From positions 602 through 64,601 of the forward strand of contig CAAGAU010000040.1 in NCBI GenBank assembly GCA_900767885.1: DNA of 64,000 nt, given 5' to 3'. The translations under genes were made by a program, and so were the position numbers. Numbering within the stretch: the stretch's first letter is position 1; each line of letters starts with the position of its first letter. The notes under the pieces are model-generated. The model worked only from the letters and a program-made list of their open reading frames with translations. It searched no databases and was not told the DNA's origin. The DNA comes from Clostridia bacterium. GTDB lineage: Bacteria; Bacillota; Clostridia; Christensenellales; Borkfalkiaceae. Shown here piece by piece: positions 2,248 to 24,802 of the stretch.

Positions 2248-2401
2248 GTAGCCGCAATGGTTATAAATTGTCGGGTTTTATTCATCTGACAGCGGTTAAA
2301 CTTTAACAAATAATCGCGGAATCATTTAAATAAAACAGCAAAAGGGCTATAGCCCTTTTGCGCGACTTTGTCGCGCAAAACACCCTTAACGGAGGAAAAA
2401 G

Positions 2402-2629
2402 ATGCAAAAAATCAGACTCATACTTTTGGTTTTTGTAACGATCGTTTTCACCGCGTTTTGTCTGGTCGGATGCTCGGGTGGCTCAAAAGGACCGCCCGAC
2501 GGCGGACAATCAAACACGGAACAGTCGGGTACGGAAACCGAAAAAACCGATTCGGAAGGATCGTCGTCAGACAGTAGCGAGAATGAAAAGAACGGCGGCA
2601 GTTGGACGTCGGTCTTACCGTTTAATTAA
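2402..2629 (+). CDS. Small lipoprotein (75 aa) with a Ser/Glu/Gly-rich tail
   Basis: GGAGGA RBS before the ATG; signal peptide with lipobox LVGC; low-complexity mature part ending GGSWTSVLPFN. Confidence 0.55.
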   Translation: MQKIRLILLVFVTIVFTAFCLVGCSGGSKGPPDGGQSNTEQSGTETEKTDSEGSSSDSSENEKNGGSWTSVLPFN

Positions 2630-2657
2630 AAGCGAAATAAAATAAAGAGGTGGAAAT

Positions 2658-2858
2658 ATGATACAGCAAAGCAACCAAAACGGCAAACGTCGCATGAGTG
2701 ACGCTGTAAGTCCCGAAAGCGGACGAAAGGCATATTCGGCGGCAAAAATCGAGGCGATTTCTTTTAATCGCGACGTTATTACAACGAGTGTCGAGGGTGG
2801 AGAAAACGGCTACGGAGTTCGATGGAACTGGGATACGAAAAATATTTGGGGAGAATAA
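2658..2858 (+). CDS. Hypothetical small soluble protein (66 aa)
   Basis: Strong RBS AGAGGTGG 4 nt before the ATG; fills the gap between two operon genes; no recognisable domain. Confidence 0.4.
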   Translation: MIQQSNQNGKRRMSDAVSPESGRKAYSAAKIEAISFNRDVITTSVEGGENGYGVRWNWDTKNIWGE

Positions 2859-2863
2859 TTATT

Positions 2864-5557
2864 ATGAAGATTGCAAAATTGAAACAGACAATTATAATTG
2901 TTATGACGGCGATGGTTATGTGTTTATGTTTAACCGTCGCAGGCACGTCTTTCGCCAAGGCGAGTGCGGCGGACGGCTCTGCGGCGATAACCGCCGAACA
3001 ATTTAAACTTAAAGGCACTTCTGTCCGCTATGTTGACGAAACTTACGGCGCGGGCGTTAAATTTCATGTATTACTTGATAAAACCGTATATAACGGACTT
3101 AGCGACAGCGCGGTAACCGGCGTTAAACTTTGCCCCGTATCTATACTTAACGGCGAAAGCGTTAAAAATTCGTCAAACGCGGCTGTAATAGATAAGCAGG
3201 TGAATAAAAATGGCTGGTTCGAGAGTAAAACCGATTCGGGCATGATGGAACTTGTCGTTTACGTTTACGACGTTACCGCTAAAGATTACGGTACCGATCT
3301 GGCTGTGGCAGGGTATATTACCGATAACGGAACAACCACTTATACTACGGAAGAATCGACTTCGCTCGCAATTGTGGCAAAAACAGCCGCCGCAACCGAA
3401 ACCGACGAAGCCAAAAAAGCGCAACTCGGCGGTTATTATACTTTTGAAGTAAAGTTGTATAATGCGGATAAAACGCTTAAAGAAAGCAAAACCGCAGAAT
3501 ACGGTACTATTTTAAGCAAACCCGAGGAAGAGGTTTGCGGCTGGTATAATAAAGATTTAACCTCGCAATGGAATTTTGAGACCGATAAGGTTAAAAGCAA
3601 CGTTGCTCTTTATGCAAAAGCGCACGGCGAAGTTGTTTATACTTCCAACGGCAACGGTACGCATAATAAAACGTATAAGTGTTGCGGCGCGGTAGTTGCG
3701 GCAAACGAAAAATGCACCTACGCCGACGGAATCGATACTTCCGATGAAGTTTACGATTACAAGAAGTGTGTTTGCGGTCAACTCGACACCGGACACGGAT
3801 TTAAAAAGACGGTCGATTTGCAAGATCAGCAACTTGTAATGACCAATGAAGCGATCGCTCTCGATCTTACGGGCGTTTCCGCTTACGATACGGTTAAGTC
3901 GATAACGCTCGGCGGGGCAAATCTCGGAACAAACCTCGGTTCGCTCGAACTCGGCGCGATAAAGACCGACGAAAAGCAGCACGGCTCAAAACAGATAACC
4001 GTAGTCGTTACCGACGCCGACGGGGCAGACCACGAAGTAGTAGTAAACGCGACTTTGGTAACCAAGGTTATAACTACCGACGCCGAATTAAAAGACGTTC
4101 TTTATGAACAAAGCGTTGCGCCTACTACTAATGGCGAAACCGAGCGTTTCGGATATTACGTCCTCGGCAACGATATCACATATACCGGTTCGAGAAACTA
4201 TGTGGCATTTTGCGGTACGTTCGACGGTAACGGACACACGATAACTACCGCAAATATGAATAACGGTTTGTTCGCGTATATTTACGGCGGCGCGGTTATC
4301 AGGGATTTAACTATAAAGGCGACGATAACTCAGAACTTGGATAACGCATATAAATGTGTTCTTGCCGCTTCGATATACAAAGCCCAAAGCGGCAACGCCG
4401 TTTCAACAATAGAGAATCTTACTGTAATTTATGAAGCCGGCATTGATTCGGCGGATATTTTCGGCGGTGGGTTTATTGTACGCGGCGATTGTCAGAATGT
4501 GTTGTTTAAGAATCTTACCGTTTGTGCAAACGGTAAAAAAATAGGCTCGCTTCTCGGTCAGACTCTTTCCAACGTTACTTTTGAAAATTGCAGCATTTTT
4601 GCCGACGAAGTAAGCTGTGTTGTGTCTAAAGCGGACGGAACGGGTAAGGTCGGATTTGCCGACGTTGAGGGCATAGAGCATAAACAAATACAGGCGAAAG
4701 AAATAGCGTTGTGGCAGCAAAACCCGTCGCTCGATTACGGCGATACGTTCGCAGGTAAGACCGTTGCGGAAATCACCTGCGGCAACTATTCTTTCGGTAA
4801 CGATCTAGCAAATCTTATTGTTCCCGAAGCGTTTATAGCCGATAAATCACTTCATGGAAGCACTATGTTCTGTGTTGAAACATCTGACGGCGCAAAGGTA
4901 TACGTTCCTGTTGTGCTGGTAACCGGAGAAATAAGCACTGAAGCAGAGTTTAAGGCCGCCACGTTTATTTCAGACGAAAAAACCACTAAATACGGTTGGT
5001 ATAGACTTGTAAATAATATTATCTTTACGAGTGATGTATCAGGTGTTCAATCTTATGGTGCCGAAATGAGCAAAGACATTGGTTTTCGCGGAGGTATTGA
5101 CGGGCAAGGGAAATATACCATAAGTACGGCGGCAGGCAAATATGTTACTGGTGGAGGAATTTTCGGTCTCGTGGGTTCAGGTGCTGTTATTAAAGACGTT
5201 AAATTCAATGTTGCCGTTTGGAAATCGGCTTTGGGTATGTTTGGTTCTCAAGGACATAATGCAACCATACAAAATGTAGAAATTACTTTCACCGCGGCAC
5301 CTACGGTTGAGAAAGCAGGACATAATGGTGCGTTCTTTGCAAGATTTAGCGGCACTATGAATTACAAGAACGTTACGTTGAACGCAGCAGGTTTTGAGTT
5401 GGCAACCATATTTGGAGTAAACCTTGAGAAAAACATGACAAAATGCGAAAAAGTAGTTGTTAACGCCAAGTCAATAGTCGTTATTGGTTATGGCACTTGG
5501 GGGGAAGAGCCAATCACCTCGCTTACAGGCTTTACTTTTAACAAAACAGAGGCTTAA
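2864..5557 (+). CDS. Secreted multidomain surface protein: Listeria-Bacteroides (Flg_new) repeat, Cys/His-rich segment, two Ig-like plus GLUG/beta-helix-like modules
   Basis: ATG 2864 starts a classic signal peptide (MKIAKLKQTIIIVMTAMVMCLCLTVAGTSFAKA). GWYNKDLTSQWNFETDKVKSNVALYAK is a Flg_new signature. FCGTFDGNGHTITT...NGLFAYIYGGAVIRDL recurs as FRGGIDGQGKYTIS...GIFGLVGSGAVIKDV. Confidence 0.65.
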   Translation: MKIAKLKQTIIIVMTAMVMCLCLTVAGTSFAKASAADGSAAITAEQFKLKGTSVRYVDETYGAGVKFHVLLDKTVYNGLSDSAVTGVKLCPVSILNGESVKNSSNAAVIDKQVNKNGWFESKTDSGMMELVVYVYDVTAKDYGTDLAVAGYITDNGTTTYTTEESTSLAIVAKTAAATETDEAKKAQLGGYYTFEVKLYNADKTLKESKTAEYGTILSKPEEEVCGWYNKDLTSQWNFETDKVKSNVALYAKAHGEVVYTSNGNGTHNKTYKCCGAVVAANEKCTYADGIDTSDEVYDYKKCVCGQLDTGHGFKKTVDLQDQQLVMTNEAIALDLTGVSAYDTVKSITLGGANLGTNLGSLELGAIKTDEKQHGSKQITVVVTDADGADHEVVVNATLVTKVITTDAELKDVLYEQSVAPTTNGETERFGYYVLGNDITYTGSRNYVAFCGTFDGNGHTITTANMNNGLFAYIYGGAVIRDLTIKATITQNLDNAYKCVLAASIYKAQSGNAVSTIENLTVIYEAGIDSADIFGGGFIVRGDCQNVLFKNLTVCANGKKIGSLLGQTLSNVTFENCSIFADEVSCVVSKADGTGKVGFADVEGIEHKQIQAKEIALWQQNPSLDYGDTFAGKTVAEITCGNYSFGNDLANLIVPEAFIADKSLHGSTMFCVETSDGAKVYVPVVLVTGEISTEAEFKAATFISDEKTTKYGWYRLVNNIIFTSDVSGVQSYGAEMSKDIGFRGGIDGQGKYTISTAAGKYVTGGGIFGLVGSGAVIKDVKFNVAVWKSALGMFGSQGHNATIQNVEITFTAAPTVEKAGHNGAFFARFSGTMNYKNVTLNAAGFELATIFGVNLEKNMTKCEKVVVNAKSIVVIGYGTWGEEPITSLTGFTFNKTEA

Positions 5558-5606
5558 AATCCGGACAAAACGACTAAAAAAATAATACGACAAAAGGATT
5601 AAACAC

Positions 5607-7307
5607 ATGAAACATAATAACAAATTTAAAAAAATATGTACGGGCGCGTTGTCGCTTACTCTTGCTTTATCTTGCTTTACGGCATGCGGCGGCGGTTCCG
5701 GCGCTGCGGGCGGCGGCGGAAGTAAATCCATTACGGAAATTCAGTTTTTAAACTATCAGGGTTGCTCTGGTAACGAATGGATAGAGGCCGCGGCAAAGCG
5801 TTTTTCCGACCTTAAAGCCGACGAAAGTTATGAGGCAAACAAAAAAGGCGTAAGAATTTCCGTAAGCGAAACAAAAGCCATGCCTTATACCACGCTTAAT
5901 TCCGACGGTTACGATATTTATATCGGCGAAAACAAAGCCAATATTTACGAAATGGCGTCGCAGGGGTATCTGCTCGAACTCGGCGACGTTGTAAAGGGTA
6001 TCGAAAACAAGATAGATCAGGACGCTATCAAGAGATTAAAGGGCGCGGACGGCAAATATTACGGTCTGCCTTCTTACGAATGGTACTCCGGCGTAAGTTA
6101 CGATTACGATTATTTTGAAGAGACAAATCTCTTCCTTGCCGCGCCGGAAGTTACCGGCAGAATGATAAACAATAAATTCGGTTCGCTTAAACTTGTCAAT
6201 TCCAAAAACGATAAAAAATCCTGCGGACCGGACGGCGTTTATAATACCGAGGACGACGGTATGCCTTCCTCCATACAGGAATTGCTTACGCTGTTTGCCG
6301 AAATCAAAAACGGCGGTCGTTCGCCGATAATTCTTTCGGGTAACTCCATCGACTACGCGTTCTTCCTTACGGACGGACTCTGGGCGGCTCTTGCCGGCAA
6401 AGATCAGTTCAAAACCGTGTACAGCATAAATTCCCAAGGCATAAAGAACGTAGAAGTCGTTACCGGCTATACTAACGAAGATTTGTTCTATAACGGTTCG
6501 GGCATCAAGCATCCCACGACCGAAATGATTGCTATCGACGAAGAAAACGGTTATAAGATTTACGACATGGCGTCGAGATATTACGCTCTCGCAACGCTCC
6601 AGCTTATCTATAACGAAAAATGGTTTTTGGAGTCGTTCCTTAACAACGCTCAGAAGACCAACGTTCAGGCACAGTACAACTTTGTCAACGACGGCGACGC
6701 CGCTGTCCTTTACGACGCGTCGTTCTGGTGCGGAGAATCCGTCCGCAGCGGCGATTTCGAAGCGTTTAAAGCGCTTAACCCCGACAAGGGCAATCGCGAC
6801 GTCCGTTACATGCCTTTGCCCGTAACGCTTGAAACGTCCGTAACCGAAAACAACGGTAAACGCCAGGTACTCGTAGACGGCGGCGCGGCTCAACTTTTCG
6901 TAAACAGGCGCGTGGCGAATAACGAGGGTAAAAAACGTGCGGTAATCGAATTTTTACAGTTCCTTTACAGCGACGCGGAACTTGCCGCCTTTACCGAAAG
7001 AACGGGCTTAAAAGTCCCCATAAAGTATGATTACGACGGTTCTAAACTCAACAGTTATTTCGAACATCTTACCAGATACGTCGAACAATCCGACGTCGTA
7101 TACTTCGCGTCGGACAGCACGATAGTACAAAAGAACCTCGAAGCGTTTTCGCTCACGTGGTCGTCTTCTATACACAGACCCGTTCTCGGCGGTATCGAAG
7201 TAGGAAAGGGCTACATCGAGGCAATGAAGAACAAGGGCGCAGACGCTAAAACTATTTTTGAAGCAACTAAAAAGAATGCGGAGAGTTGGAATAATCTCCA
7301 GAGATAA
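5607..7307 (+). CDS. ABC transporter extracellular sugar-binding lipoprotein (large LplA-like family 1 SBP)
   Basis: Lipobox FTAC followed by a Gly-rich linker; ~560 aa; sits immediately upstream of two MalFG-type permeases. Confidence 0.8.
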   Translation: MKHNNKFKKICTGALSLTLALSCFTACGGGSGAAGGGGSKSITEIQFLNYQGCSGNEWIEAAAKRFSDLKADESYEANKKGVRISVSETKAMPYTTLNSDGYDIYIGENKANIYEMASQGYLLELGDVVKGIENKIDQDAIKRLKGADGKYYGLPSYEWYSGVSYDYDYFEETNLFLAAPEVTGRMINNKFGSLKLVNSKNDKKSCGPDGVYNTEDDGMPSSIQELLTLFAEIKNGGRSPIILSGNSIDYAFFLTDGLWAALAGKDQFKTVYSINSQGIKNVEVVTGYTNEDLFYNGSGIKHPTTEMIAIDEENGYKIYDMASRYYALATLQLIYNEKWFLESFLNNAQKTNVQAQYNFVNDGDAAVLYDASFWCGESVRSGDFEAFKALNPDKGNRDVRYMPLPVTLETSVTENNGKRQVLVDGGAAQLFVNRRVANNEGKKRAVIEFLQFLYSDAELAAFTERTGLKVPIKYDYDGSKLNSYFEHLTRYVEQSDVVYFASDSTIVQKNLEAFSLTWSSSIHRPVLGGIEVGKGYIEAMKNKGADAKTIFEATKKNAESWNNLQR

Positions 7308-7313
7308 GGTCAT

Positions 7314-8261
7314 ATGAATTCGACTACGATCAAAACAAACCAGAGGTTGAGCAAAACAAAGACCAACAGGCTTATCTTTTACTCGATAATGGTAGCCGTA
7401 CCCGTAATACACTTTCTTGTGTTTTATGTGTACATAAACTTTAACTCGATATTGTTATCTTTAAAAGATTATGCGCTTGCCGATATGGGCGGTTATACCT
7501 GGAAATTTGCGGGATTTAAGAATTTTAAAACGGCGTGGAATATTTTTACTTCCCGCGGGTATCTTATCAGAAGCTCGCTTATATTCCTTGCGTCGGACTG
7601 TCTTATAATCACGCCGCTTGCAGTGCTGTTTTCATTTTATCTCTATAAAAAAGCGCCGCTTTCGGGTTTCTTTAAAGTAATACTGTTTCTGCCTCAACTT
7701 TTGTCGGGCGTAATTCTCGGTTTGCTTTACAAGTACATCGCTTCCGACGTCTATCTGTGGTTTGCCGATAAAATGCACATGACGGTAAACGGCGGCTTGC
7801 TCGATTCGGCGGAAACCGTTCTCGCTTCAACGCTCGCGTTTAATATTTTTATGGGCTTCGGCGTAAACGTATTATTGTTTGTCGGCGCGATGAGCGGCGT
7901 AAACTCGTCGGTTGTGGAATCTGCCAAAATCGACGGGGCGTCGTCCTTGCAGGAACTTTGGTATATCATTCTTCCGCTGATAAGTCCGACGGTAATTACC
8001 GTGCTTATAATCTACATATCGCACGTTTTTACCAATCAGTACAATATGTATACGTTGTTCGGGTCGGGCGCGTTGGATATTCAGACGGTAGGATATTTTC
8101 TGTATTGCCAGACGCTCGAATCAAAACTTGCCGGCACACGCGAAAACATCTTTACTTATCCGGTACTTTCTGCCATGGGTATCATTCTTACGGCAATAAT
8201 TTTGCCGATAACCATGTTGTTCAGGTGGTTTATGAACAAGTACGCTCCGAGTGCGGACTGA
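7314..8261 (+). CDS. ABC sugar transporter permease (LplB/MalF-like)
   Basis: Multi-TM protein with EAA loop ESAKIDGASSLQELWYIILPL. Confidence 0.85.
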   Translation: MNSTTIKTNQRLSKTKTNRLIFYSIMVAVPVIHFLVFYVYINFNSILLSLKDYALADMGGYTWKFAGFKNFKTAWNIFTSRGYLIRSSLIFLASDCLIITPLAVLFSFYLYKKAPLSGFFKVILFLPQLLSGVILGLLYKYIASDVYLWFADKMHMTVNGGLLDSAETVLASTLAFNIFMGFGVNVLLFVGAMSGVNSSVVESAKIDGASSLQELWYIILPLISPTVITVLIIYISHVFTNQYNMYTLFGSGALDIQTVGYFLYCQTLESKLAGTRENIFTYPVLSAMGIILTAIILPITMLFRWFMNKYAPSAD

Positions 8262-8267
8262 TCGGGG

Positions 8268-9245
8268 GTGAATACTATGAAAAAACTAATCCGATCGGAC
8301 AAAAAGGAAATCGCGACAAAGGTCATTTTCGTTTTGCTTTTTGCGGTGCTTGTGATCTATTCGCTCATAATGATATTGTCGCTGTTGTGGGGATTTATAA
8401 CCTCGCTTAAATCGACGGGCGACTTTGAAAAACTCAACAATATTATGGGTCTGCCGAATCTCGACGCCGGCAATTACTTCAACAGTCGCGACGCGTTTTT
8501 CAAATTGGGCAACTATAAGACGGTTATCGATAACTTCGTAGTTAAACAAACGAGCGCGTATTACGGGCTGGGCGCGGAACAAATTGTTCACAGATGCGAG
8601 GCGAATTTCGGAGAAATGCTCGTAAATACATTGCTCTACACCGTGGGCGGCGCGCTTATTTACGCCGTTATGCCCGCAATAACCGCGTATCTTTGCGCCA
8701 AATACAGTTACAAACTCAGCGCAATATTGGTTACGGTCTACACGCTTATGATGTGTATGCCTATAGTCGGCAGCGCACCTTTTGAACTGACTTTCTTGCG
8801 TAACGTAGGTTTGTACGACAGTATTTTAGGTAACTACGTGCAAAAAATGACCGGCGGCGGTATGTATTTCTTCGTGTATCTCGCATACTTTAAGGGCACG
8901 AGCGAAACCTACCGCGAAGCGGCGCAGTTAGACGGGGCGTCGCAGTTAAGAATTATGGCGACTATTTATTTTCCGCTTGCCGTAAAAATTATCGCCACGG
9001 TCTTTTTAATTCAGTTCGTCGCGCTGTGGAACGATTATCAGACTCCGCTTTTGTACCTGCCTACGCATCCTACGCTGGCTTACGGAGTGTATTACGTTTC
9101 TTTCGCGTCGTACGCGCGGGCTTTGCATCATACGCCTTTGCGTATAGCGGGACTTATGCTGCTTGCAATACCCATAATCATACTTTTTGCAGTGTTTAAA
9201 GACAAACTTATGGGAGATATATCTCTCGGAGGAATTAAGGAATAA
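8268..9245 (+). CDS. ABC sugar transporter permease (LplC/MalG-like)
   Basis: Multi-TM protein with EAA loop EAAQLDGASQLRIMATIYFPL. Confidence 0.85.
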   Translation: MNTMKKLIRSDKKEIATKVIFVLLFAVLVIYSLIMILSLLWGFITSLKSTGDFEKLNNIMGLPNLDAGNYFNSRDAFFKLGNYKTVIDNFVVKQTSAYYGLGAEQIVHRCEANFGEMLVNTLLYTVGGALIYAVMPAITAYLCAKYSYKLSAILVTVYTLMMCMPIVGSAPFELTFLRNVGLYDSILGNYVQKMTGGGMYFFVYLAYFKGTSETYREAAQLDGASQLRIMATIYFPLAVKIIATVFLIQFVALWNDYQTPLLYLPTHPTLAYGVYYVSFASYARALHHTPLRIAGLMLLAIPIIILFAVFKDKLMGDISLGGIKE

Positions 9246-9249
9246 AAAA

Positions 9250-12200: not shown

Positions 12201-12261
12201 TTACTGCACGGACGAAGCGGGCAATACCGCATACGTTTCCTACGAACTTATCGCGAAATAA
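9250..12261 (+). CDS. Large exported protein (1003 aa) with repeated Ig-like (DUF5011/HYR-like) domains; function unknown
   Basis: ATG 9250 starts an N-terminal hydrophobic anchor or signal (ILTLLLCFLAATTCFIFSAL). Repeated D..GP.I / D..KP.I / D.EIP.V domain starts followed by G.Y.V.Y.A.D..GN patterns. Confidence 0.55.
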   Translation: MKSRSINYKILTLLLCFLAATTCFIFSALKPDSATAAAAEFEENPFEEIYEYGYTLEMPTSLKIVSGEKTYTANKRYVRFPDGTIYAGGKYVLDNFGEYSLIYEAEADGKKITATHSFCVKTSTYSAGKSSYYKIATLNADFDKNAEVKGLSLNLAAGETFTYNKPVNVYENATLELIKFNVMHFDPIGKEIVIKLTDCYDPSRYIELVYKKELYNETYMGVGANGKAARGLTQYMNIGGSTIYIDGQGYKVNANGALIPSNRKWERHVDAGLKQDRYNNMTVSLDTTDKDRPRVYVKTAPENIKNELIAELNNSDVYGYSFGGFTTGDVIVSITAKTVIGAETIEVQIASLCGVSGEDLAGGTLVDENGPEIVINSERTSLNVMAGVPITVPSATAFDSSGIAGKVDYCVYYGYGTTFRKNVNVKNGSFTPLDLGTYTVVYTAKDVFGNKSEKTFVLNAIKEGKEGIDFTCEKISDADAGSFVSLAGYRAKSLNTTANVSVSVTGPDGKQVAISADMSAFCEGVGEYTVKYDYYDDLYSGSYTYKFTAKDGGISRFEKNGVILPDYMIKGATYSVDKINAYKYSSVTPSLEKVNYTVSYDGKAFTDFNPDEFTVTGNDTLKIRYTLASDSTVFIESKDIKIVDAGYGATIDGSKYFAGSFAGRIDENTPDYASYALSVTDEGSLDFINPLLMSTFSFRYSLSGTIGFYTMSFTDYYDRANKVTAEFVDGGIKINGVFKAVTYNAGEPLTVSYANGNLVVGEASIPFAPDFKAEKILFGLKFNEITEAGELKVYSVCNQTFGYYVTSDNVKPIISVEHADRVADIGDVITLYVPEIADVLSPSAKSNCVVSVYKDGKPVTGTNGVLLSNADAFAGYSFRIDAFGSYLVLYRYTDGSGKVGDDRHAITVTDTEIPSVTLDNYDGKPVHASVNAEISPAAHTVKDNITASDKINVTIVVYNDKGVAVCVTDDKFTLTKAGKYTVYIYCTDEAGNTAYVSYELIAK

Positions 12262-12271
12262 CGAGGTTAAA

Positions 12272-14305: not shown

Positions 14306-14315
14306 GAGGTGAATC

Positions 14316-16403: not shown

Positions 16404-16412
16404 GTAAATTTA

Positions 16413-16445
16413 CCGGCATTCCGCCGCACAGCGGCGGAATGCCGG
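16413..16445 (+). terminator. Strong hairpin at the operon end (weak T-run)
   Basis: Perfect 15-bp stem CCGGCATTCCGCCGC / GCGGCGGAATGCCGG with loop ACA. Confidence 0.6.
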
Positions 16446-16474
16446 TATAAAGTATTTTAATTTTAAAAGATGAA

Positions 16475-17980
16475 ATGAAACTTAACAGAGAAACATACAA
16501 GGATAAAGTAAAAGCGTGCTGGATAGGCAAAAATATCGGCGGAACTATAGGCGGACCTTACGAAGGGAAAAGAGAGATTCTTGACGTAAAAGGCTTTTTG
16601 ACCGAAGCGGGCGAACCTATGCCCAACGACGATCTCGATTTGCAACTCGTGTGGCTTCATGCCGTAGAAAAAGAGGGCGCGAATAATATTACCGCCGAAA
16701 AACTCGGAGAATACTGGTTGTCGTTTATTCCCGTGGCGTTTTCGGAATACGGAATAGCCATGAGCAATATGAGAAACGGACTTATGCCGCCGCTTTGCGG
16801 CGACGCCGACAACAACGTGTGGAAACACAGTAACGGCGCGTGGATAAGAACGGAAATATGGGCGACTCTCGCCCCCGCAATGCCTGACGTGGCCGTTCGT
16901 TACGCCATAGAAGATTCCAAAGTCGATCACGGCATGGGCGAAGGAACTTACGCCGCAATGTTCGTTGCGGCTATAGAAAGTGCGGCGTTCGTTATAACCG
17001 ATTTAAGAAAACTTATAAAAATAGGACTGGCAAAAATTCCGTCCTGTTGCAGATTGTATAAGACGATAGAACTGCTTTGTTCGCTTTACGACGAGGGTAA
17101 AAGTTGGATCGACGCGAGAAACGCAATCCGTAATTTCAACGCGGATTTGGCCGACGGCTGGTTTCAGGCCCCGTCCAACGTCGCTTTTGCCGTACTCGGA
17201 CTGTTATACGGCGAAAACGACTTTAAAAAATCGATGCTTCTTGCGGTAAACTGCGGCGACGATACCGATTGTACCGCGGCGACCGTCGGTTCGATTTTCG
17301 GTATCATGCACGGAACGAAAGGTATTCCGAAAGACTGGGCGGCCCATATCGGCGACCGTATAATAACCTGTTGTATAAATCTCGGCGTATGTTTCAGAAG
17401 ACCTCAGACCTGTACGGAACTTACCGAAAGAGTGGTTCGTCTTGCGCCCGTGGTAACGGAACAAAACAGGGCCGAAAGGCAGGCGACGTTTACCGAATTT
17501 ACGGACGGCAAAGACGAAATCGATAATGACGCATACGAAAAATTCGCGCTGCCATACGGGCAGAGCGAGGAATCGGACGAAATGCGCAGATCGGTCGCCG
17601 CGCTTAAACCCGAAACGTTTACCGCTAAGTGCGGCGCGTTTACGGCGGTTGTTTCTTATGATAAATCGCCCGAGGCGTCAGGCGGAGAAACGCGCGTTTT
17701 AACGCTTAAACTTATCAACAACGTAAAGGCTTTCGGCAATCAGCCGCTTTTTGTAAACGTCGAAGTACTTTTGCCGGATGGCGCTTTTTGCGATAAGCCC
17801 GCTTTTAAAGTTTACGTTCCTCACTGGACCGCGCTTACCCCCGACTGCCGGACCGACGATATATCCGTAAAAATTACCATGCCCGAAGTCCTCGGTGCGG
17901 TTACGACGTTCTATCTGCGGCTTAAGGCGGAGGGCAGATATTCGGTTTATACCGTTCCCGTAGTGTTTTTAACTAAATAA
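16475..17980 (+). CDS. ADP-ribosylglycohydrolase (ARH/DraG) family protein with a ~170-aa C-terminal beta-rich extension
   Basis: ARH-type metal-binding motifs MPNDDLDLQLVWLH and NCGDDTDCTAATVGSIFG; no signal peptide. Confidence 0.75.
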   Translation: MKLNRETYKDKVKACWIGKNIGGTIGGPYEGKREILDVKGFLTEAGEPMPNDDLDLQLVWLHAVEKEGANNITAEKLGEYWLSFIPVAFSEYGIAMSNMRNGLMPPLCGDADNNVWKHSNGAWIRTEIWATLAPAMPDVAVRYAIEDSKVDHGMGEGTYAAMFVAAIESAAFVITDLRKLIKIGLAKIPSCCRLYKTIELLCSLYDEGKSWIDARNAIRNFNADLADGWFQAPSNVAFAVLGLLYGENDFKKSMLLAVNCGDDTDCTAATVGSIFGIMHGTKGIPKDWAAHIGDRIITCCINLGVCFRRPQTCTELTERVVRLAPVVTEQNRAERQATFTEFTDGKDEIDNDAYEKFALPYGQSEESDEMRRSVAALKPETFTAKCGAFTAVVSYDKSPEASGGETRVLTLKLINNVKAFGNQPLFVNVEVLLPDGAFCDKPAFKVYVPHWTALTPDCRTDDISVKITMPEVLGAVTTFYLRLKAEGRYSVYTVPVVFLTK

Positions 17981-18000
17981 AATTAAAAGGTTTTAATCGA

Positions 18001-20448
18001 ATGATTACCGAAAGAAACAGCGTTATTAAAATTAAAACGAATTTAAGCGGCAGCGGCGTTGTTTATATAGAATGCGAAAAAAAGATATTCGGCGCGGTAT
18101 TTGCGGTATCGCAACCGTCGGGGGAGGTTTTTAACGTCGGTTTGTCGACGGAAAACAACAAAGCCGTCGGCGAGTTTACCGTAAAAAATCCCGAACCGTG
18201 GAATATCGAATTCCCCGTTTTATACTCTTTTTCGGCTATGATAACGACCGAAGACGGAATCGAAAAAGCGGAGGGTAAATTCGCTTTCAGAACGATTACC
18301 TCAAACGGGAAAAATATCTGTATAAACGGAACGCCCGTGTTTATACGCGGATATATACGCGGCGCGACGGCGCACGAGCATCAGAACGACGCAAATCTTA
18401 CCGAAGAGGAGTTTTATCGGAAAAATATTACTCAGGCGAAGAAATTCGGCTTTAATACGGTAAGATTTCACTCGGTCGTACCGAACGAAACTTTTCTCGG
18501 GTTGGCGGACGAACTCGGAATGCTGGTACATATAGAACTCCGGCCTCCGCACGATATTTACAACAATCTTGAAGAAATGGTTACCACCGGCAACGCAATC
18601 GTGCCGGATGATTTTCTCGCGGAGGTCGTAAACAAAGGGTATAATCACCCGTCTTTGGCCGTTTACTGCATCGGCAACGAAATAAAAAACGCCCCCGCAG
18701 GAACGATAAGGGCGATAAAGAAAAAAATAGACGTTCTCGACGGCACGCGTCTGTTTCTCGATACCTGCGCATGGGGCGAGAACGGACGACCCGATATAGA
18801 TATTGACGTTCAGCATTTAAGTTATTATTTTCCGTTCGGTAAGCACGCGAAAATGTACGACGACACCGATAATCTGCTTGTCGTGGACAATTCCGAGACA
18901 AAACCGATGAAAACTTGCGGCAAAAACGCCCAAATAACGCGAACACCGCATTTTTCGGTGCCTTTGATCGCGCACGAGGTCTGTCATTATACGGCATTAA
19001 GAGATTTCGGCGGGCTTAAAAAGAAATTTTCGGAATACGGAACGCCCGTTCCGTGGTGGATAGACGAAGAGTTAAAAATCATTAAAGAAAAAGGCTATTC
19101 CGGGCGTTACGCCGAAATGTACAAGGCGAGCAAGCGCTTTCAATCGGAATGCTGGAAAACGGCGTTCGAGGCGATGCGCTCGAGTAAACTGCTCGGAGGA
19201 TTTCATTTTCTGCAGTTTGCCGATACCGACGTTTACGAAAACTCCAACGGAGTTGTTGATTGTTTTGACGACGAAAGCTACGTTACGCCGGAGTTTTTCT
19301 TGAAATTCAACGGCGACAGGGTTTTGCTTACGGATCTCGGTTACAGGCTTTTTTATGCGGGCGACGAAATCACTTTACCCGTAAACTTATCCAATTGCGG
19401 CGACACCGCGGAAAAAACGGTCCTTTTCAGGTTTATGCTTATCCGTGAAAACGGCGAGATTTGCGCCCTTGGCGAAATGCCCGAGGTTGACGTAAAGGAA
19501 AAAGGCGTATACGAAATATGTAAGATAAAGATACGTCTTCCCGAAGTGAAAAAATCCGAGAAACTTACGTTAAAGGTAAAACTTTTTGCAAAAGATAAAA
19601 TTTATTCCGAAAACGAGTGGGAACTTTGGGTGTACGAAAAAGAAAAGCCGATTTCGTATAAAGAATTCGTTACTTACGAAAGCGGAGACGCGGTAATTAC
19701 CGACGACGTTGAAAAAGCCTTCGAGAGCATTGAAAAAGGCAAAAACGTATGTCTTGTTTACCGCAGCGAATGGACCAGGCACGTTGCCGATAAGGCGCAG
19801 AAAAATCCGAAGTATGCATTTAAGGCGACGTGGAATCGTTTCAAACCCGTCATCTGGGACAGGGGAACGAATTACGGCGGACTTTGCAACGCGGAACTTC
19901 TCGGCAAATACGGCTTTGCAAGCGATAAATACTATGGTTTCAATTACTCGGTAATTTCGGAGGATTGCGATAAAATAATTCTCGACGATTTCCCCGTGGC
20001 GACGGAAACTGTCGTTTCGGGTATCGACAAAAGTTGCAGAGATCGTTTCGACGCTTATAAAGGCAGTTTTAATCTTCCCGAGATTATGCCGGACAGAACT
20101 CTGAGGGATTTCGGTTATCTGTTTTCTTTCGGCGTCGGCAACGGAAAACTGCTCGTGTGCGGGTTTAATCTTACGGGGCTGGATAAAAACGAGCCGTCGA
20201 GCGCGGCCATGGCAAAATTCATAAAGGAGTATATCCGAAGTGAAGATTTTGCTCCGAAGAATAAACTTACGTTGACCGAACTTAAACGGTATATGGAAAA
20301 ATGCGTTTCGTCGCCCGTAAAAGAGCGGATGATGACGCAATTCTGGGAACTTGACGACGCTCCCGTGGAAAGCCCCTCGTTCTGGAAAGAGTCGAGAGAG
20401 TATCTGATAAACAATAATGCTTATGAAAATAATTCATCTGATTTGTAA
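18001..20448 (+). CDS. Glycoside hydrolase family 2-like protein (beta-galactosidase/beta-mannosidase type)
   Basis: N-terminal sugar-binding-like beta domains, then a TIM barrel with FNTVRFHS and CIGNEIK (NE acid/base-like); cytoplasmic. Confidence 0.6.
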   Translation: MITERNSVIKIKTNLSGSGVVYIECEKKIFGAVFAVSQPSGEVFNVGLSTENNKAVGEFTVKNPEPWNIEFPVLYSFSAMITTEDGIEKAEGKFAFRTITSNGKNICINGTPVFIRGYIRGATAHEHQNDANLTEEEFYRKNITQAKKFGFNTVRFHSVVPNETFLGLADELGMLVHIELRPPHDIYNNLEEMVTTGNAIVPDDFLAEVVNKGYNHPSLAVYCIGNEIKNAPAGTIRAIKKKIDVLDGTRLFLDTCAWGENGRPDIDIDVQHLSYYFPFGKHAKMYDDTDNLLVVDNSETKPMKTCGKNAQITRTPHFSVPLIAHEVCHYTALRDFGGLKKKFSEYGTPVPWWIDEELKIIKEKGYSGRYAEMYKASKRFQSECWKTAFEAMRSSKLLGGFHFLQFADTDVYENSNGVVDCFDDESYVTPEFFLKFNGDRVLLTDLGYRLFYAGDEITLPVNLSNCGDTAEKTVLFRFMLIRENGEICALGEMPEVDVKEKGVYEICKIKIRLPEVKKSEKLTLKVKLFAKDKIYSENEWELWVYEKEKPISYKEFVTYESGDAVITDDVEKAFESIEKGKNVCLVYRSEWTRHVADKAQKNPKYAFKATWNRFKPVIWDRGTNYGGLCNAELLGKYGFASDKYYGFNYSVISEDCDKIILDDFPVATETVVSGIDKSCRDRFDAYKGSFNLPEIMPDRTLRDFGYLFSFGVGNGKLLVCGFNLTGLDKNEPSSAAMAKFIKEYIRSEDFAPKNKLTLTELKRYMEKCVSSPVKERMMTQFWELDDAPVESPSFWKESREYLINNNAYENNSSDL

Positions 20449-22807
20449 CGCCCACCTCGATCCTATATGGCAGTGGACGTGGGACGAGGGTATTTCTTCG
20501 GCTTTGTCTACGTTCAAGAGTGCGGCGGACCTTGCCGACGAGTTCGATTATATATTTTGTCATAACGAATCGCTTTTATACGAGCAGATAGAGCGGATCG
20601 ATCCCGAATTATTCGGCAGAATAAAAAAACTCGTAAAACAAGGCAAATGGGTGGTTGCGGGCGGATGGTATCTGCAACCCGATTGTCTTATGCCGTCCGG
20701 CGAAAGCATCGTAAGGCAGATAAAAGTAGGACAGAAGTATTTTTACGAAAAATTCGGCATAAAAAGCGAAGTGGCGGTAAATTACGACTCGTTCGGGCAT
20801 AGTATCGGTCTTGTTCAGATATTGCGCAAATGCGGTTATAAGGGATATATCGTATGCAGACCCAACCGCGTTCAGTGTCCCGTGCCGTCGAGATTTTTCA
20901 GATGGGTTGCGCCGGACGGCAGCAGTTTGATCGTTTCGGTCGCCTCTTCGTATAATTCGAGGCTCGGTAATGCGGTAAACAAGATAGACGAATACCTTGA
21001 CTGGAGAGAAACGAACATGCTCGGTTCCGAAGAGGGTGGCGGCAAAACGAGAGAGAATTACGAAACGGATTACGTCTTGTGGGGAGTGGGCAATCACGGC
21101 GGCGGTCCGTCCCGAAAAGATTTACGCGACATCGCAAATTACAAAAGAGACGGCGTAACTCTCATACATTCTTCGCCCGATAAACTGTTTAACGATAAAA
21201 TAGAAGTTAAAGGCGAAATGAGGAGTTCGCTTATAACCTGTATGCCGGGGTGTTATTCGTCTATGGCAAGGGTTAAACGCGCCCATCGCGAAACGGAAAG
21301 TCTTTATTATTCGGTTGAAAAAATGCTTTCTTACGCTTCGCTCTGCGGGTTCGATTATAATACCGACGACTTGCAGACCGCGCTTAAAAATCTGTTGCTC
21401 GGCGAGTTCCACGATATTCTGCCCGGCACCGTCGTTAAAGACGGCGAACAAAACGCGTCGGAGCTTTTCGAATCGGCAAAAAAAATACTTAACGATTACA
21501 GGACGAAAATCTTCTTGCGCCTTGCAATGAACAACCCCGTTGCCGAAAACGGCGAGTATCCGATATTCGTGTTCAATTATGCCGCGCACAAACTTAATAC
21601 GCCCGTGGAATTCGAGTTTTCGCTTGCCGACCAGAACTGGAGCGAGGAATTCGAATATAAGCCGCACGTTTATTATAACGGCGAAGAGATTGCCTGTCAG
21701 CAGATAAAAGAAAGGTCTACGCTTAACCTCGACTGGCGTAAACGCGTTATAATCGACGCCCCGCTTGCTCCCCTCGGAATAACCCGGTTTTCGGTAAAGA
21801 CCGAACGGGTGCCGAAAAAATCGGAACGTTATTCCGTTGACAATGCGAAAAAAGCGTTTAACGAAGATTTTCCCCGCGAGATTACGCTTATCCGTTACGA
21901 GGACAGCGCGGATCCATGGGCTATGAGTCCTGCCGAGCGCGAATTTTTAGGTAAGAATCCGCAGGAATTTTCCGTTATGACCGCCGGTCAGGCAGAAGAA
22001 TTCTGTAAAGCGAAAGGCATTTTGCCGTTCCATATAACTGAAGACGGAAAAATCGTAAGAGTTTACGAAAAGTTATTTAAATACGGCGAGGATAACGCCG
22101 TTATAGAATACAGAAAATATAAAAATCAACCGTTTACCGACGTGAAAATCACTGTTGAGTTTGTCGGTAAAAACGAACTTATACGGGCGAGGATCCCTAT
22201 GCCCGAAGGTGAGGTTATAGGCGACGGACCGTATATCGTGGAGAAAAAACCCGTAAAAGGCGAAATGACTTTTCAGAAGTGGGTAGGCATAAAAACTCCC
22301 GACGGAAAAGTACATGCTGTTATAAACGATTGCGTATACGGCGGAACGGCGGGCGACGGATATATAGAATTGACGTTGCTGCGCGGTGCGGGATATTGTT
22401 TCCACCCCATCAGGGAAAGACAGCTTTACCCTGAGGACAGATACCTGCCGAGAATAGACTGCGGAAGGTACGAGTTTAATCTTCGTCTGCTTATCGGCAG
22501 CGTGGAAGAGGTCTGCGAAGAAGCGGAGTCGTTTGCCTGCAGACCTTATGCCGTAAACGTATTCCCGACGGGCGGAAGTATGCCGACGATCGACGTAAAA
22601 GTAGATAAAGGCGTAGTGGTTTCGTCATTCGCCAAATCCGAAAACGGCGGATATTATATGAGATTATGGAATCCGTCCGAAAACGGTAAGGACGTAAACG
22701 TACAAACCGGAAACCTGAAAAAAACGATAGCAGTCAAGCCGTACGAAATAGTTTCGCTTAAAATAGACAAAGAAATAACCGCCGTCGGCGACGAAATCGT
22801 CGTATAA
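20417..22807 (+). CDS. GH38 alpha-mannosidase (cytoplasmic type)
   Basis: CNAHLDPIWQW (HxD..W.W), NYDSFGHS (nucleophile motif) and GVGNHGGGPS. Overlaps the GH2 stop; ATG 20423 is an alternative start. Confidence 0.8.
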   Translation: MLMKIIHLICNAHLDPIWQWTWDEGISSALSTFKSAADLADEFDYIFCHNESLLYEQIERIDPELFGRIKKLVKQGKWVVAGGWYLQPDCLMPSGESIVRQIKVGQKYFYEKFGIKSEVAVNYDSFGHSIGLVQILRKCGYKGYIVCRPNRVQCPVPSRFFRWVAPDGSSLIVSVASSYNSRLGNAVNKIDEYLDWRETNMLGSEEGGGKTRENYETDYVLWGVGNHGGGPSRKDLRDIANYKRDGVTLIHSSPDKLFNDKIEVKGEMRSSLITCMPGCYSSMARVKRAHRETESLYYSVEKMLSYASLCGFDYNTDDLQTALKNLLLGEFHDILPGTVVKDGEQNASELFESAKKILNDYRTKIFLRLAMNNPVAENGEYPIFVFNYAAHKLNTPVEFEFSLADQNWSEEFEYKPHVYYNGEEIACQQIKERSTLNLDWRKRVIIDAPLAPLGITRFSVKTERVPKKSERYSVDNAKKAFNEDFPREITLIRYEDSADPWAMSPAEREFLGKNPQEFSVMTAGQAEEFCKAKGILPFHITEDGKIVRVYEKLFKYGEDNAVIEYRKYKNQPFTDVKITVEFVGKNELIRARIPMPEGEVIGDGPYIVEKKPVKGEMTFQKWVGIKTPDGKVHAVINDCVYGGTAGDGYIELTLLRGAGYCFHPIRERQLYPEDRYLPRIDCGRYEFNLRLLIGSVEEVCEEAESFACRPYAVNVFPTGGSMPTIDVKVDKGVVVSSFAKSENGGYYMRLWNPSENGKDVNVQTGNLKKTIAVKPYEIVSLKIDKEITAVGDEIVV

Positions 22808-24799: not shown

Positions 24800-24802
24800 T
24801 TT

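Follow-up and report, generated by a model that had tools for sequence, protein, structure and literature searches.

The region described here is a glycan-utilisation locus of Gram-positive type that relies on an ABC importer and comes from a Christensenellales/Borkfalkiaceae-like member of the Clostridia, an uncultured gut bacterium; one of the exported proteins of the locus, a 677-aa lipoprotein with a DUF4838 domain, is a GH163-like candidate extracellular glycoside hydrolase. The explanation that we consider best, with a probability of roughly 0.55, is that this surface enzyme releases oligosaccharides, that the large exported proteins bind or scaffold, and that an ABC importer and a set of cytoplasmic enzymes finish the process. 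The locus lies in a 64-kb stretch of DNA that was analysed as a whole (the window). It is real and does not represent a chance arrangement of genes; it recurs on other contigs and its core gene order is kept in distant relatives. Copies of the locus at 99–100% identity are present on 8 other metagenome contigs, and a ninth contig (L001) is 98–99.4% identical at the DNA level except for one variable segment.

Nine co-oriented ORFs on the forward strand extend from 2402 to 16403 in the ORF listing with a spacing of 4–49 nt; the first-pass annotation of this DNA had described nine such tightly spaced genes. The hairpin at which it ended this gene series is also present, although the stem, given there as 15 bp at 16413, measures 17 bp; it is perfect, has a 3-nt loop (16411–16447), is followed on its 3' side by an A/T-rich run containing short T stretches, and separates the surface and import genes from those for the cytoplasmic enzymes. 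Downstream of it are genes for an ARH-fold protein, a GH2-like enzyme and a GH38 enzyme, and then those for an AraC regulator and two esterases, all of which had been named earlier and are supported by Pfam. The Pfam matches in the locus comprise two BPD_transp_1, DUF4838, Big_2, ADP_ribosyl_GH, a partial GH2, the N, mid and C domains of GH38, the AraC regulator, GCE_fung (CE15-like), and GDSL. Lipoboxes are readable in a 75-aa ORF (LVGC), the substrate-binding protein (SBP) (FTAC), the 677-aa protein (FSAC), and a 695-aa protein (AISC). Export of the 897-aa and 1003-aa proteins is marked by a signal peptide of type I, and no anchoring signal was found in them. A Gram-positive PUL (gpPUL) is defined by a regulator and a carbohydrate transporter encoded together with one or more glycoside hydrolases, and the locus has all three, viz. 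the AraC protein, the SBP with two permeases, and the DUF4838, GH38, and GH2-like enzymes.

The 677-aa lipoprotein (12272..14305, + strand) combines a GH67N/GH20b-like N-domain (weak PF03648 match) with a DUF4838 TIM-barrel (PF16126, 7.3e-20). The PF16126 match is full length, covering profile positions 13–322 of 325 over residues 188–551, and scores 71.8 bits against a cut-off of 26.6; the fold of the protein is also near that of the GH67/GH115 alpha-glucuronidases. DUF4838 is the catalytic domain of both GH163 (BT1035) and GH185 (Sp_0475) (PMC10570127), and GH163 proteins are distinguished by one Cys upstream of alpha3 and a CxCxxC motif downstream of beta4, located on a loop that also bears the putative acid/base (PMC11776370). 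The 677-aa protein displays this pattern, with C286, a CxCxxC motif at 336–341 (C336, C338, and C341), and D331 located five residues before the motif, where the placement relative to alpha3 and beta4 is deduced from spacing. Residues R206, H257, C286, D331, C336, C338, C341, R381, and Y391 are invariant in two alignments, one of 31 close-to-distant homologues and the other of nine distant cassette or fusion sequences; in the latter nine, N258 and Y464 do not vary either. The lipobox cysteine, C25, is the same in all of the 31 homologues, and the eight separate cassette lipoproteins have it too. The residue preceding D331 is Ala in the window protein and Glu in most relatives.

A full-length DUF4838 domain with a GH163-type Cys cluster beside the invariant Asp331, together with the invariant His257 and Tyr, makes a candidate for the releasing enzyme visible. 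The equivalence of residues is drawn from the published pattern and from spacing, and the PDB copy searched contained no GH163 structure. Membership in GH185, which is cytoplasmic and has CxCxxC without an upstream Cys, was rejected, since the 677-aa protein has a lipoprotein signal and an upstream Cys; the GH185 active site consists of Q174/H227/D309/Y436/R633, and the 677-aa protein has invariant His, Asp, and Tyr residues of its own. The first-pass annotation had suggested a DUF4838-like lipoprotein and possible GH163 relative, and the PF16126 match and Cys pattern uphold this suggestion. Its broader statement, that the extracellular machinery has no recognisable catalytic domain, is not supported for the 677-aa protein, which is a candidate for the releasing enzyme that it had left unidentified. 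It had also named the assignment of the exported proteins to known families with known substrates by HMM or structure searches as grounds for its own refutation, and such searches have brought this about in part, with the 677-aa protein placed in a known family and the 897-, 1003-, and 695-aa proteins without a catalytic family. Similarly, its remark that more than 3,000 exported codons encode only binding-type or beta-helix-like modules is supported by sequence searches for the latter three proteins (2595 codons) and not supported for the DUF4838 protein.

The importer consists of a divergent 566-aa sugar-binding lipoprotein (SBP; 5607..7307, + strand), for which there is no Pfam match and weak PDB matches to the sugar-binding lipoproteins 3vxb, 7ehp, and 4r9f, and two CUT1-type permeases on the same strand, one (7314..8261; BPD_transp_1 1.5e-14) similar to GlcT, UgpA, and MalF and the other (8268..9245; BPD_transp_1 4.2e-9) similar to UgpE and MalG. 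Both permeases are MalF/G-like, as is characteristic of CUT1 importers, and the earlier description of an LplABC-type SBP and two permeases lacking an ATPase gene is supported, the SBP and permeases being read here as CUT1-type. No ABC ATPase is encoded within the whole 64-kb window; sharing of an ATPase among importers is common in Firmicutes.

Upstream of the importer is the secreted 897-aa protein (2864..5557, + strand), whose ORF opens at 2822 and whose ATG follows a GGGGAG ribosome-binding site. After the signal peptide come a CBM-like beta-sandwich and a Cys-rich segment, and then two Ig-like domains, each followed by a beta-solenoid module (beta-solenoid 1 and 2, respectively). Pfam, NCBIfam, and PDB sequence searches gave no match to this protein, and no catalytic domain was detected. 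For its AF2 model (pLDDT 84), the best Foldseek match in the PDB is a GH110 beta-helix (E=2e-3) with TM-scores of at most 0.2, and CBM21/CBM56-like matches have high probability at E-values of only 0.04–0.1; other weak matches are to isopullulanase GH49, pectate lyase Pel3, phage pectate-lyase-superfamily proteins, and tailspikes. Membership in the beta-helix glycoside hydrolases and lyases (GH28, GH49, GH110, and PL1/3/9) is not supported, as there is neither a significant structural match nor a conserved acidic catalytic set. The conserved columns of the solenoid modules, which are only about 170–300 aa long, consist solely of Gly, aromatic residues, and an FDG turn.

Both solenoid modules of the 897-aa protein are strain-variable. 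Within the species, homologues that agree at 97–100% over their first 400 aa are 45–100% identical in module 1 (aa 401–600; 4064..4663, + strand). For module 2 (aa 651–897; 4814..5554, + strand), blastn against L001 gives no alignment over 4811–5497, with flanks that are 98–99.4% identical, and divergent alleles share 36–68% identity in strains that are otherwise about 99% identical. In the 897-aa protein, strain-level variation is clearly limited to these two surface modules. The same type of module occurs as 2–14 matched stretches in giant surface proteins, is fused to DUF4838 in 3 of the 31 proteins scanned and at 3654–6221 of L004, and is appended to Y_phosphatase3 and M26_N-like regions.

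The secreted 1003-aa all-beta protein (9250..12261, + strand; ORF opening at 9187) is an array of Ig/cadherin-like and jelly-roll-like sandwiches (AF2 pLDDT 89), and all of the best 50 Foldseek PDB matches listed for its model are non-enzymatic multidomain beta-sandwich proteins (best 1.4e-13), such as adhesins, S-layer proteins, cadherins, and alpha-2-macroglobulins. Its family profile matches SraP cadherin-like domains, it has full-length homologues down to 22% identity, and no catalytic domain was detected by Pfam, NCBIfam, PDB sequence search, or AlphaFold with Foldseek. The 695-aa lipoprotein (14316..16403, + strand) has Big_2 repeats (5e-7), an Ig-like domain, and one beta-solenoid module; its lipobox Cys is invariant among cassette orthologues, and Pfam, NCBIfam, and PDB sequence searches revealed no catalytic domain. 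The motif GYYVL...F.G.(F/L)DG.G...GLFG..IKN is common to the 695-aa protein, the 897-aa protein, and the cassette orthologues. Structure prediction agrees with the reading of the 897- and 1003-aa proteins as binding-type or beta-solenoid proteins, a reading which for the 695-aa protein comes from sequence searches.

The enzymes encoded beyond the hairpin, all on the + strand, begin with a cytoplasmic 501-aa ARH-fold protein (ADP-ribosylglycohydrolase family; 16475..17980) that has an extra C-terminal domain and matches PF03747 over profile positions 1–287 of 287 (146 bits, 1.9e-42). Its PDB matches to ARH proteins are only distant, it scores far under the DraG and Tri1 equivalog cut-offs, and its gene occupies the same position in L004 and L011. 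It is followed by an 815-aa GH2-like clan GH-A enzyme (18001..20448) without an N-terminal sugar-binding domain, which matches Glyco_hydro_2 and Glyco_hydro_2_C partially; its TIM-barrel match covers just profile positions 5–159 of 302, the GNE motif is present, and its C-terminal 450 aa resemble a BT4151-type exo-beta-1,4-galactosidase (1.9e-51, far below the equivalog cut-off). The 796-aa GH38 alpha-mannosidase-family enzyme (20417..22807) is cytoplasmic, with no signal peptide, and matches PF01074 (5.9e-44), PF09261 (1.9e-14), and PF07748 (1.7e-5); its N-terminal metal-binding motif, HxxxxxHxD, reads HLICNAHLD. The AraC-family regulator (AraC_binding and HTH_18) is encoded on the opposite strand (22838..23686, −), and a gene of this family adjoins the cassette in 8 of 10 related loci, none being seen in the stretch of L012 shown. 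A CE15-like (glucuronoyl-esterase family) alpha/beta hydrolase (23768..24799, +; GCE_fung 7.4e-28) and an SGNH/GDSL esterase (24803..25462, +; Lipase_GDSL_2 1.4e-23) form a pair that is also found in L012. On the other side of the locus, a cytoplasmic 546-aa protein (422..2062, +) without a signal peptide is distantly related to the clan GH-D alpha-galactosidases (GH27/GH36), with weak Melibiase matches and a PDB match to the alpha-galactosidase 6lcj at E=1.9e-7, others being weaker; it adjoins the locus in L001 too.

The order SBP, permease, permease, ~1000-aa protein, DUF4838 protein, and Big_2/beta-solenoid lipoprotein is fixed in ten independent loci, including L004, L006, L008, L009 (where the contig end cuts the sixth cassette gene), L010, L011, L012, L013, and L014. 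The SBP always has the same position within the cassette, and the ~1000-aa proteins are 22–35% identical across related cassettes. The accessory glycoside hydrolases differ among sister cassettes (GH28, GH127, GH95, GH36, or GH2), and the cassette of L012 adjoins NagA and NagB genes. Two small ORFs precede the 897-aa gene. The first (2402..2629, +) encodes a 75-aa lipoprotein with a Ser/Gly/Glu-rich tail, for which all family matches are sub-threshold and whose occurrence is limited to close relatives. The second (2658..2858, +) encodes a 66-aa member of a small-peptide family (K.Y..P...[DE][VI][IV].[TA]S...W), its stop overlapping the ribosome-binding site of the 897-aa gene; an NCBIfam search assigned it to no family, and homologues of 32–57 aa are located 2–51 nt upstream of 897-type genes in L004, L006, L008, L012, and L013. 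We found no description of this conserved cassette in the literature, and the cassette order, the beta-solenoid–DUF4838 fusions, the module variability of the 897-aa protein, and the small-ORF family preceding 897-type genes are new here.

Streptococcal and bifidobacterial N-glycan systems consist of a GH18/GH85 endo-enzyme, an ABC importer, and a cytoplasmic GH38. The present locus is organised like these systems and like the gpPULs of Roseburia and Eubacterium rectale (PMC5320581), with a regulator, an ABC importer that depends on an SBP and lacks an ATPase of its own, a single extracellular enzyme, and exo-glycosidases in the cytoplasm. However, the extracellular enzymes of gpPULs and of the streptococcal and bifidobacterial systems are classical multimodular glycoside hydrolases with CBMs and cell-wall anchors, whereas here a DUF4838 lipoprotein and three families of large proteins without a Pfam family form a fixed cassette. 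Only two characterised DUF4838 members are described in the literature that we found. BT1035 of Bacteroides thetaiotaomicron, the founding GH163 member, is a surface endo-beta-N-acetylglucosaminidase that releases LacNAc from complex N-glycans (PMC10570127), and the 677-aa protein can be likened to it, by the published pattern, in its DUF4838 TIM-barrel, its lipid anchor at the surface, and its four-Cys cluster by the putative acid/base loop. BT1035 differs in its C-terminal F5/8 type C domain and in feeding a SusC/D-type outer-membrane importer, whereas the 677-aa protein has a GH67N/GH20b-like N-domain, lacks F5/8, and belongs to a monoderm ABC-importer cassette with three large partners. 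Sp_0475 of Streptococcus pneumoniae, a GH185 exo 6-sulfo-GlcNAcase (PMC10570127), is likewise a Firmicute DUF4838 protein with CxCxxC and a His/Asp/Tyr-type active site, but it is cytoplasmic, with no signal peptide, and has no upstream Cys.

The solenoid modules share the motif F.G.FDG.G..I...GLFG...I.N with the Peptidase_M26_N/GLUG-type beta-helix of IgA1 proteases and giant Firmicute surface proteins. Peptidase_M26_N (PF05342) scored in some homologues of the 897-aa protein, and a phage 'putative IgA1 protease' is among the Foldseek matches. The locus itself does not encode an M26 peptidase domain in any of its genes, and its short modules are paired with Ig-like domains. A functional analogy is proposed with the SusE/F-like surface glycan-binding proteins (SGBPs) of Bacteroidota PULs, which are non-catalytic, beta-sandwich-rich surface proteins encoded beside an importer; the envelope and transporter type differ, and the likeness proposed is one of function only. 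SGBPs are also strain-variable.

In the mechanism that we favour, the AraC regulator would turn on the operon, and the lipid-anchored DUF4838 enzyme, of the GH20/GH163/GH185 lineage, would cleave the target glycan at the cell surface into importable oligosaccharides. The 1003-aa array, the 695-aa lipoprotein, and the secreted 897-aa protein may capture and present the glycan or serve as a scaffold that places the enzyme by the transporter. The SBP and the two CUT1 permeases would then take up the fragments using an ATPase of MsmX/MsmK type supplied from elsewhere, and cytoplasmic breakdown would involve the clan GH-D alpha-galactosidase-like protein, the ARH-fold hydrolase, the truncated GH2-like enzyme, and GH38, in addition to the two esterases. 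The substrate is probably a branched heteroglycan that contains Gal and Man and may also contain HexNAc or uronic acid; it could be a complex N-glycan. The first-pass annotation had proposed a mannose-containing, N-glycan-like substrate, which we regard as possible but less likely than not. The pairing of a GH163-like surface enzyme with GH38 agrees with it, GH163 acting on complex N-glycans, as do the galactosidase-like region of the GH2-like enzyme and the NagA and NagB genes beside the cassette of L012. By Pfam, however, genes for GH18, GH85, GH20, GH29, GH33, and GH125 are all absent from the locus, neither the two esterases (CE15-like and SGNH) nor the clan GH-D enzyme belongs to a known N-glycan pathway, and in sister cassettes this surface module occurs alongside enzymes of pectin or arabinan type (GH28 and GH127). 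In view of the GH28, GH127, GH95, and GH36 genes of sister cassettes, the DUF4838 subfamily may not be restricted to N-glycans, and a single endo-activity that depends on HexNAc would not easily account for such varied enzymes.

Two other explanations concern the releasing step. Since the known GH185 member is exo-acting, the 677-aa enzyme might only trim, and the locus could then contain no endo-enzyme at all and scavenge oligosaccharides freed by other gut microbes, with the DUF4838 protein as an exo-trimming surface hexosaminidase like GH20/GH185 and the large proteins as capture lectins. The binder-like appearance of the remaining three exported proteins and the variation of the accessory enzymes round a constant surface module fit this explanation, which we nevertheless judge unlikely: the founding member of GH163 acts at the cell surface as an endo-enzyme, the Cys residues of the 677-aa protein follow the GH163 pattern and not that of GH185, and four large exported proteins constitute a heavy investment that is more usual for polymer capture. 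Less probable still is that the oligosaccharides are released by the 897- or 695-aa beta-solenoid protein, acting as a beta-helix glycanase or lyase of a new kind, and that the DUF4838 protein only trims them. The modules show no significant match, are short, have no conserved acidic residue outside the FDG turn, and are repeated, with as many as 14 matched stretches in one protein, or appended to other catalytic domains; moreover, those of the 897-aa protein exist as alleles whose identity falls to 36–60% between strains that are 99% identical elsewhere, a pattern typical of recognition surfaces and not of active sites. These points outweigh the right-handed beta-helix-like form of the modules, the beta-helix enzymes and tailspikes among the weak top Foldseek matches, and the conservation of the 695-type lipoprotein in the cassette to the same extent as DUF4838.

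Christensenellales are common in the gut and associated with health, most of them are uncultured, and little is known of how they forage for carbohydrates. The present locus shows that they combine a fixed surface module, arranged around the GH163-like DUF4838 lipoprotein, with interchangeable sets of cytoplasmic glycosidases, and it offers a testable model of monoderm glycan capture organised beside an ABC importer as well as concrete targets for new glycosidase specificities that could be useful for glycan remodelling. More tentatively, and with less than even confidence, we propose that the small peptide, the 897-type protein, the SBP, the two permeases, the beta-sandwich array, the DUF4838 protein, and the Big_2/beta-solenoid lipoprotein form a multiprotein cell-surface glycan-harvesting complex that is specific to uncultured Christensenellales-like Clostridia and corresponds, in a monoderm, to the Sus-like 'utilisome' of Bacteroidota. 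In such a complex the DUF4838 subfamily would have specificities beyond N-glycans and the strain-variable solenoid modules would set ligand or phage/immune recognition.

The 5' leader of the locus contains a promoter-like site, TTGAAT-17-TATAAT with a TG extension (2219..2247, +), and two adjacent hairpins with stems of 10 bp and 7 bp (2338..2378, +) that have no match in Rfam. These hairpins are conserved in L001, where the whole leader (2063–2420) is 99% identical.

The glycan-utilisation locus of the window (2402-25462) exemplifies a conserved system for surface capture and import that is joined to variable cytoplasmic tool-kits, as indicated by the constant order of its cassette genes and the differing accessory enzymes between loci. 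Homologues of its 1003-aa secreted protein at 22-35% identity were invariably found in the same cassette gene order (viz. SBP, permease, permease, ~1000-aa protein, DUF4838 protein, and Big_2 protein) in the ten loci examined (L004/L005, L006/L007, L008, L009, L010, L011, L012, L013, L014). The SBPs of these cassettes (~552-586 aa), for which no firm Pfam match was obtained, are followed by the two permeases, the ~1000-aa protein, a DUF4838 protein of 627-723 aa and a Big_2 or Big-like protein of 650-1100 aa, the gene for which is interrupted by the contig end in L009. In 8 of the 10 loci the cassette has a gene for an AraC-family regulator beside it, and no ATPase gene was seen adjoining any examined cassette. 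Proteins of the 897-aa type, which have an N-terminal beta-sandwich containing '...GIRF...' and, C-terminal to it, a single solenoid module or a pair of them, recur in L004, L006, L008, L012, and L013.

The accessory genes consist of GH95, a second DUF4838 and ARH in L004; GH28 and a pectate-lyase-fold protein in L006 and L013; a full-length GH2 in L008; GH127, an esterase and oxidoreductases in L010; ARH, a GH2-like enzyme and GH36 in L011; and a Melibiase-family enzyme with a further DUF4838 in L014. The L012 cassette has NagA, NagB, and UxuA upstream and, downstream, the same GDSL and CE15-like pair that is found at 23768-25462 of the window, and these neighbours hint that at least some members of the cassette family act on substrates containing HexNAc and uronic acid. 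Its flanks (L012:4449-6361 and 19444-21089) also contain oxidoreductase genes. In three cassettes an ARH-fold gene (window 16475-17980, L004:18146-19642, and L011:17252-18907) is located directly 3' of the gene for the Big_2 lipoprotein; its product is a divergent member of the ADP-ribosylglycohydrolase family that has an extra C-terminal domain of ~200 aa. A literature search found no link of ARH-fold enzymes to glycan loci, CAZy or glycan catabolism, with the possible exception of a preprint on Bacteroides ribose utilisation.

The ORF map, Pfam domains, and export signals agree with the gene-by-gene anatomy given in the first-pass annotation. The UvrC protein of the window shares a cluster, at 90% identity or more, with proteins labelled 'Candidatus Borkfalkiaceae / Christensenellaceae bacterium' and 'Clostridia bacterium', which places the host among uncultured gut Clostridia of Christensenellales-like affiliation. 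Nine + strand ORFs separated by intergenic gaps of 4-49 nt occupy 2402-16403, between a promoter-like site (2219-2247) and a perfect 17-bp hairpin (16411-16447). Between the promoter-like site and the first ORF, the 5' leader contains two adjacent hairpins with 10-bp and 7-bp stems (2338-2378) that are identical in L001, a contig from a human gut sample (Hadza/Nepal study) carrying the locus; an Rfam search of 1-26500 gave no match to any known riboswitch or leader, these hairpins included. The ORFs encode, in order, a 75-aa protein with the lipobox LVGC (2402-2629), a 66-aa member of a small-peptide family (2658-2858), the 897-aa secreted protein (ATG at 2864), the 566-aa SBP lipoprotein (lipobox FTAC), two BPD_transp_1 permeases, the 1003-aa secreted protein, the 677-aa lipoprotein (12272-14305; lipobox FSAC), and the 695-aa lipoprotein (lipobox AISC). 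Pfam domains 3' of the hairpin comprise ADP_ribosyl_GH (1.9e-42), a partial GH2 and the N, mid and C domains of GH38, and further 3' those of a divergent AraC regulator and of two esterases, one CE15-like (GCE_fung) and one GDSL.

A small-peptide ORF of 32-57 aa (66 aa in the window), ending 2-51 nt upstream, precedes each 897-type gene in the distant loci (L004:545-676, L006:17320-17436, L008:18692-18865, L012:17322-17420, and L013:17373-17501). The consensus of the family runs from K.Y..P through a hydrophobic stretch and [DE][VI][IV].[TA]S to a W further on, with the Tyr, Ser, and Trp invariant; it has no signal peptide and no NCBIfam match. In the window, the ribosome-binding site of the 897-aa gene (GGGGAG, 9 nt before the ATG) falls within the final codons of the 66-aa ORF. 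These peptides may serve in translational coupling, as chaperones or as peptide partners.

The extracellular machinery of the locus had been described as lacking a recognisable catalytic domain, a claim that fails because the 677-aa lipoprotein matches DUF4838 over almost the whole profile (71.8 bits vs. a Pfam cut-off of 26.6), with a weak GH67N-type domain N-terminal to it (Pfam). DUF4838 is not a binding module but the catalytic TIM-barrel of the CAZy families GH163 and GH185, which are distant kin of GH20 with structures close to those of GH84 and GH115 (PMC10570127). The founder of GH163, BT1035, is a surface endo-hexosaminidase that cleaves GlcNAc-beta1,2-Man of complex N-glycans, and that of GH185, Sp_0475, is a cytoplasmic exo-6-sulfo-GlcNAcase (PMC10570127). 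Diagnostic of GH163 are one Cys upstream of alpha3, which is absent from GH185, and a CxCxxC downstream of beta4, on the same loop as the putative acid/base (PMC11776370). In the 677-aa family, C286, D331, C336, C338, and C341 are invariant both in an alignment of 31 homologues (lowest identity 32%) and in a separate nine-sequence set drawn from distant cassettes and from fusion proteins, as are R206, H257, R381, and Y391; N258 and Y464 are invariant in 9/9 sequences of the latter set. Residues were matched to the mutated H227, D309, and Y436 of Sp_0475 by pattern and spacing, not by alignment. Every member of the 31-sequence set retains the lipobox Cys, as do 8/8 separate cassette lipoproteins. 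On the strength of the DUF4838 match, the invariant GH163-type Cys/Asp pattern and the lipobox, the 677-aa protein appears to be an active enzyme of the GH163 type, anchored at the cell surface. The cluster of C286, C336, C338, and C341, invariant across this DUF4838 subfamily, probably forms a structural Zn site of the sort proposed for GH20, GH42, and GH163 (PMC11776370). A PDB search with a profile of the family matched nothing beyond two short collinear stretches of the GH67 alpha-glucuronidase AguA.

The view that the exported proteins comprise only binding-type or beta-helix-like modules does not extend to the 677-aa lipoprotein, and it stands for the 897- and 1003-aa proteins (Foldseek on models) and for the 695-aa lipoprotein, in which sequence searches show Big_2 repeats and one solenoid module. 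Single-sequence PDB searches with these four proteins gave nothing useful. Models were compared as whole multidomain structures, which lowers TM-scores by construction, and E-values were used instead. The AlphaFold model of the 1003-aa protein (46-sequence alignment; pLDDT 89) is entirely beta, and all of its top 50 Foldseek matches in the PDB are non-enzymatic Ig-, cadherin- or FN3-like sandwich arrays (best E=1.4e-13), examples being the grappling hook GhpA, the adhesin SraP, the S-layer proteins Sap and SbsB, alpha-2-macroglobulins, and cadherins; a profile of this family matched only the cadherin-like domains of SraP in the PDB. The 897-aa model (37-sequence alignment; pLDDT 84) consists of a signal peptide, a CBM-like beta-sandwich, a Cys-rich segment, and two Ig-like domains, each followed by a short beta-solenoid.

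One rival reading sees in these solenoids a novel beta-helix depolymerase. The best Foldseek match of the 897-aa model in the PDB is indeed a GH110 beta-helix, which at E=2e-3 is not significant; a viral Foldseek library added, at weak E-values, only pectate-lyase-superfamily proteins, a phage 'IgA1 protease' and some proteins without a name, and a profile search of the PDB with the 897-aa family gave no match. The solenoid module, for which the 695- and 897-aa proteins have the motif GYYVL..DI...F.G.(F/L)DG.G..I...GLFG....IKN in common, has Gly, aromatic residues, and an FDG turn as its conserved columns, among which there is no conserved acidic catalytic set. Its matches at E<=1e-3 number just 157 among 1.84 billion representative proteins; about 30 of them are ~700-aa orthologues, and most of the others are giant surface proteins in which 2-14 stretches match. 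DUF4838 and M26_N each occur in 3/31 of the giant proteins and Y_phosphatase3 in 2/31; Exo_endo_phos was also found on such proteins. Natural fusions of the module to DUF4838 are present at L004:3654-6221 (855 aa) and in the solenoid-bearing protein P0281 (2422 aa). From these sequences the module is read as an accessory, non-catalytic unit that would cooperate physically with DUF4838.

The modules of the 897-aa protein also vary among strains. In blastn, L001 is 98-99.4% identical to the window apart from 4811-5497, which gave no alignment at all. Among 18 close homologues, identity is 97-100% over residues 1-400 and falls in divergent alleles to 45-76% in module 1 (aa 401-600; 4064-4663) and to 36-68% in module 2 (aa 651-897; 4814-5554), each module having several alleles that are combined as mosaics. 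Elsewhere in the locus, the 695-aa lipoprotein included, eight other contigs show 99.3-100% identity: the window is 100% identical over 6475-27000 to ENA contig ERZ27229785 k119_107556, and 99.3% identical to seven further metagenome contigs. Variation of the module type is more in keeping with recognition or antigenic surfaces than with active sites. A diversity-generating retroelement was rejected as its source, since 40-60% of residues differ over 200-250 aa and the scanned window ORFs include no reverse-transcriptase domain.

We propose that the AraC regulator would turn the operon on, the beta-sandwich and solenoid proteins would capture glycan at the cell surface, and the lipid-anchored GH163-like enzyme would cut it; the SBP and CUT1 permeases would then take up the fragments with a shared ATPase encoded elsewhere. 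Past about 26.3 kb of the window, the scanned ORFs are mostly housekeeping genes and include no ABC ATPase. Degradation would be completed in the cytoplasm by a clan GH-D protein (PDB alpha-galactosidase match, E=1.9e-7), the ARH-fold protein, the GH2-like enzyme, GH38 and the two esterases. The GH2-like enzyme is N-terminally truncated, and its C-terminal part resembles BT4151-type exo-beta-1,4-galactosidase, with a GNE motif. A rival to the proposed surface cleavage is oligosaccharide scavenging alone, with exo-trimming. A further rival reading, a specifically N-glycan substrate, would suit the GH163, GH38, and beta-galactosidase-like enzymes; it loses weight because GH18, GH85, GH20, GH29, and GH33 genes are absent from the locus and because sister cassettes are linked to GH28 or GH127. 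A xanthan- or pectin-type substrate, considered from GH38 and the esterases, is unsupported because Pfam found no PL8, GH88, GH94, GH5 or GH28 gene in the locus.

The locus follows the same logic as a Gram-positive PUL and, as one of its exported proteins does carry a recognisable catalytic domain, is less unusual than it had seemed. Its novelty lies in the constant combination of a DUF4838 lipoprotein with three large protein families to which Pfam assigns no family, with a small peptide, and with solenoid modules that are hypervariable; a literature search on DUF4838 did not find the cassette described. It remains moderately interesting for the conservation of the cassette, the fused genes, and the variation of the modules between strains.

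Outside the locus, 32161-34935 encodes a ~925-aa lipoprotein (signal peptide end VSCSGG) without a Pfam family, consisting of long low-complexity, apparently helical repeats and a C-terminal domain. Paralogous uracil phosphoribosyltransferase genes (30117-30758 and 31301-31939) adjoin a xanthine/uracil permease gene (28539-29987).
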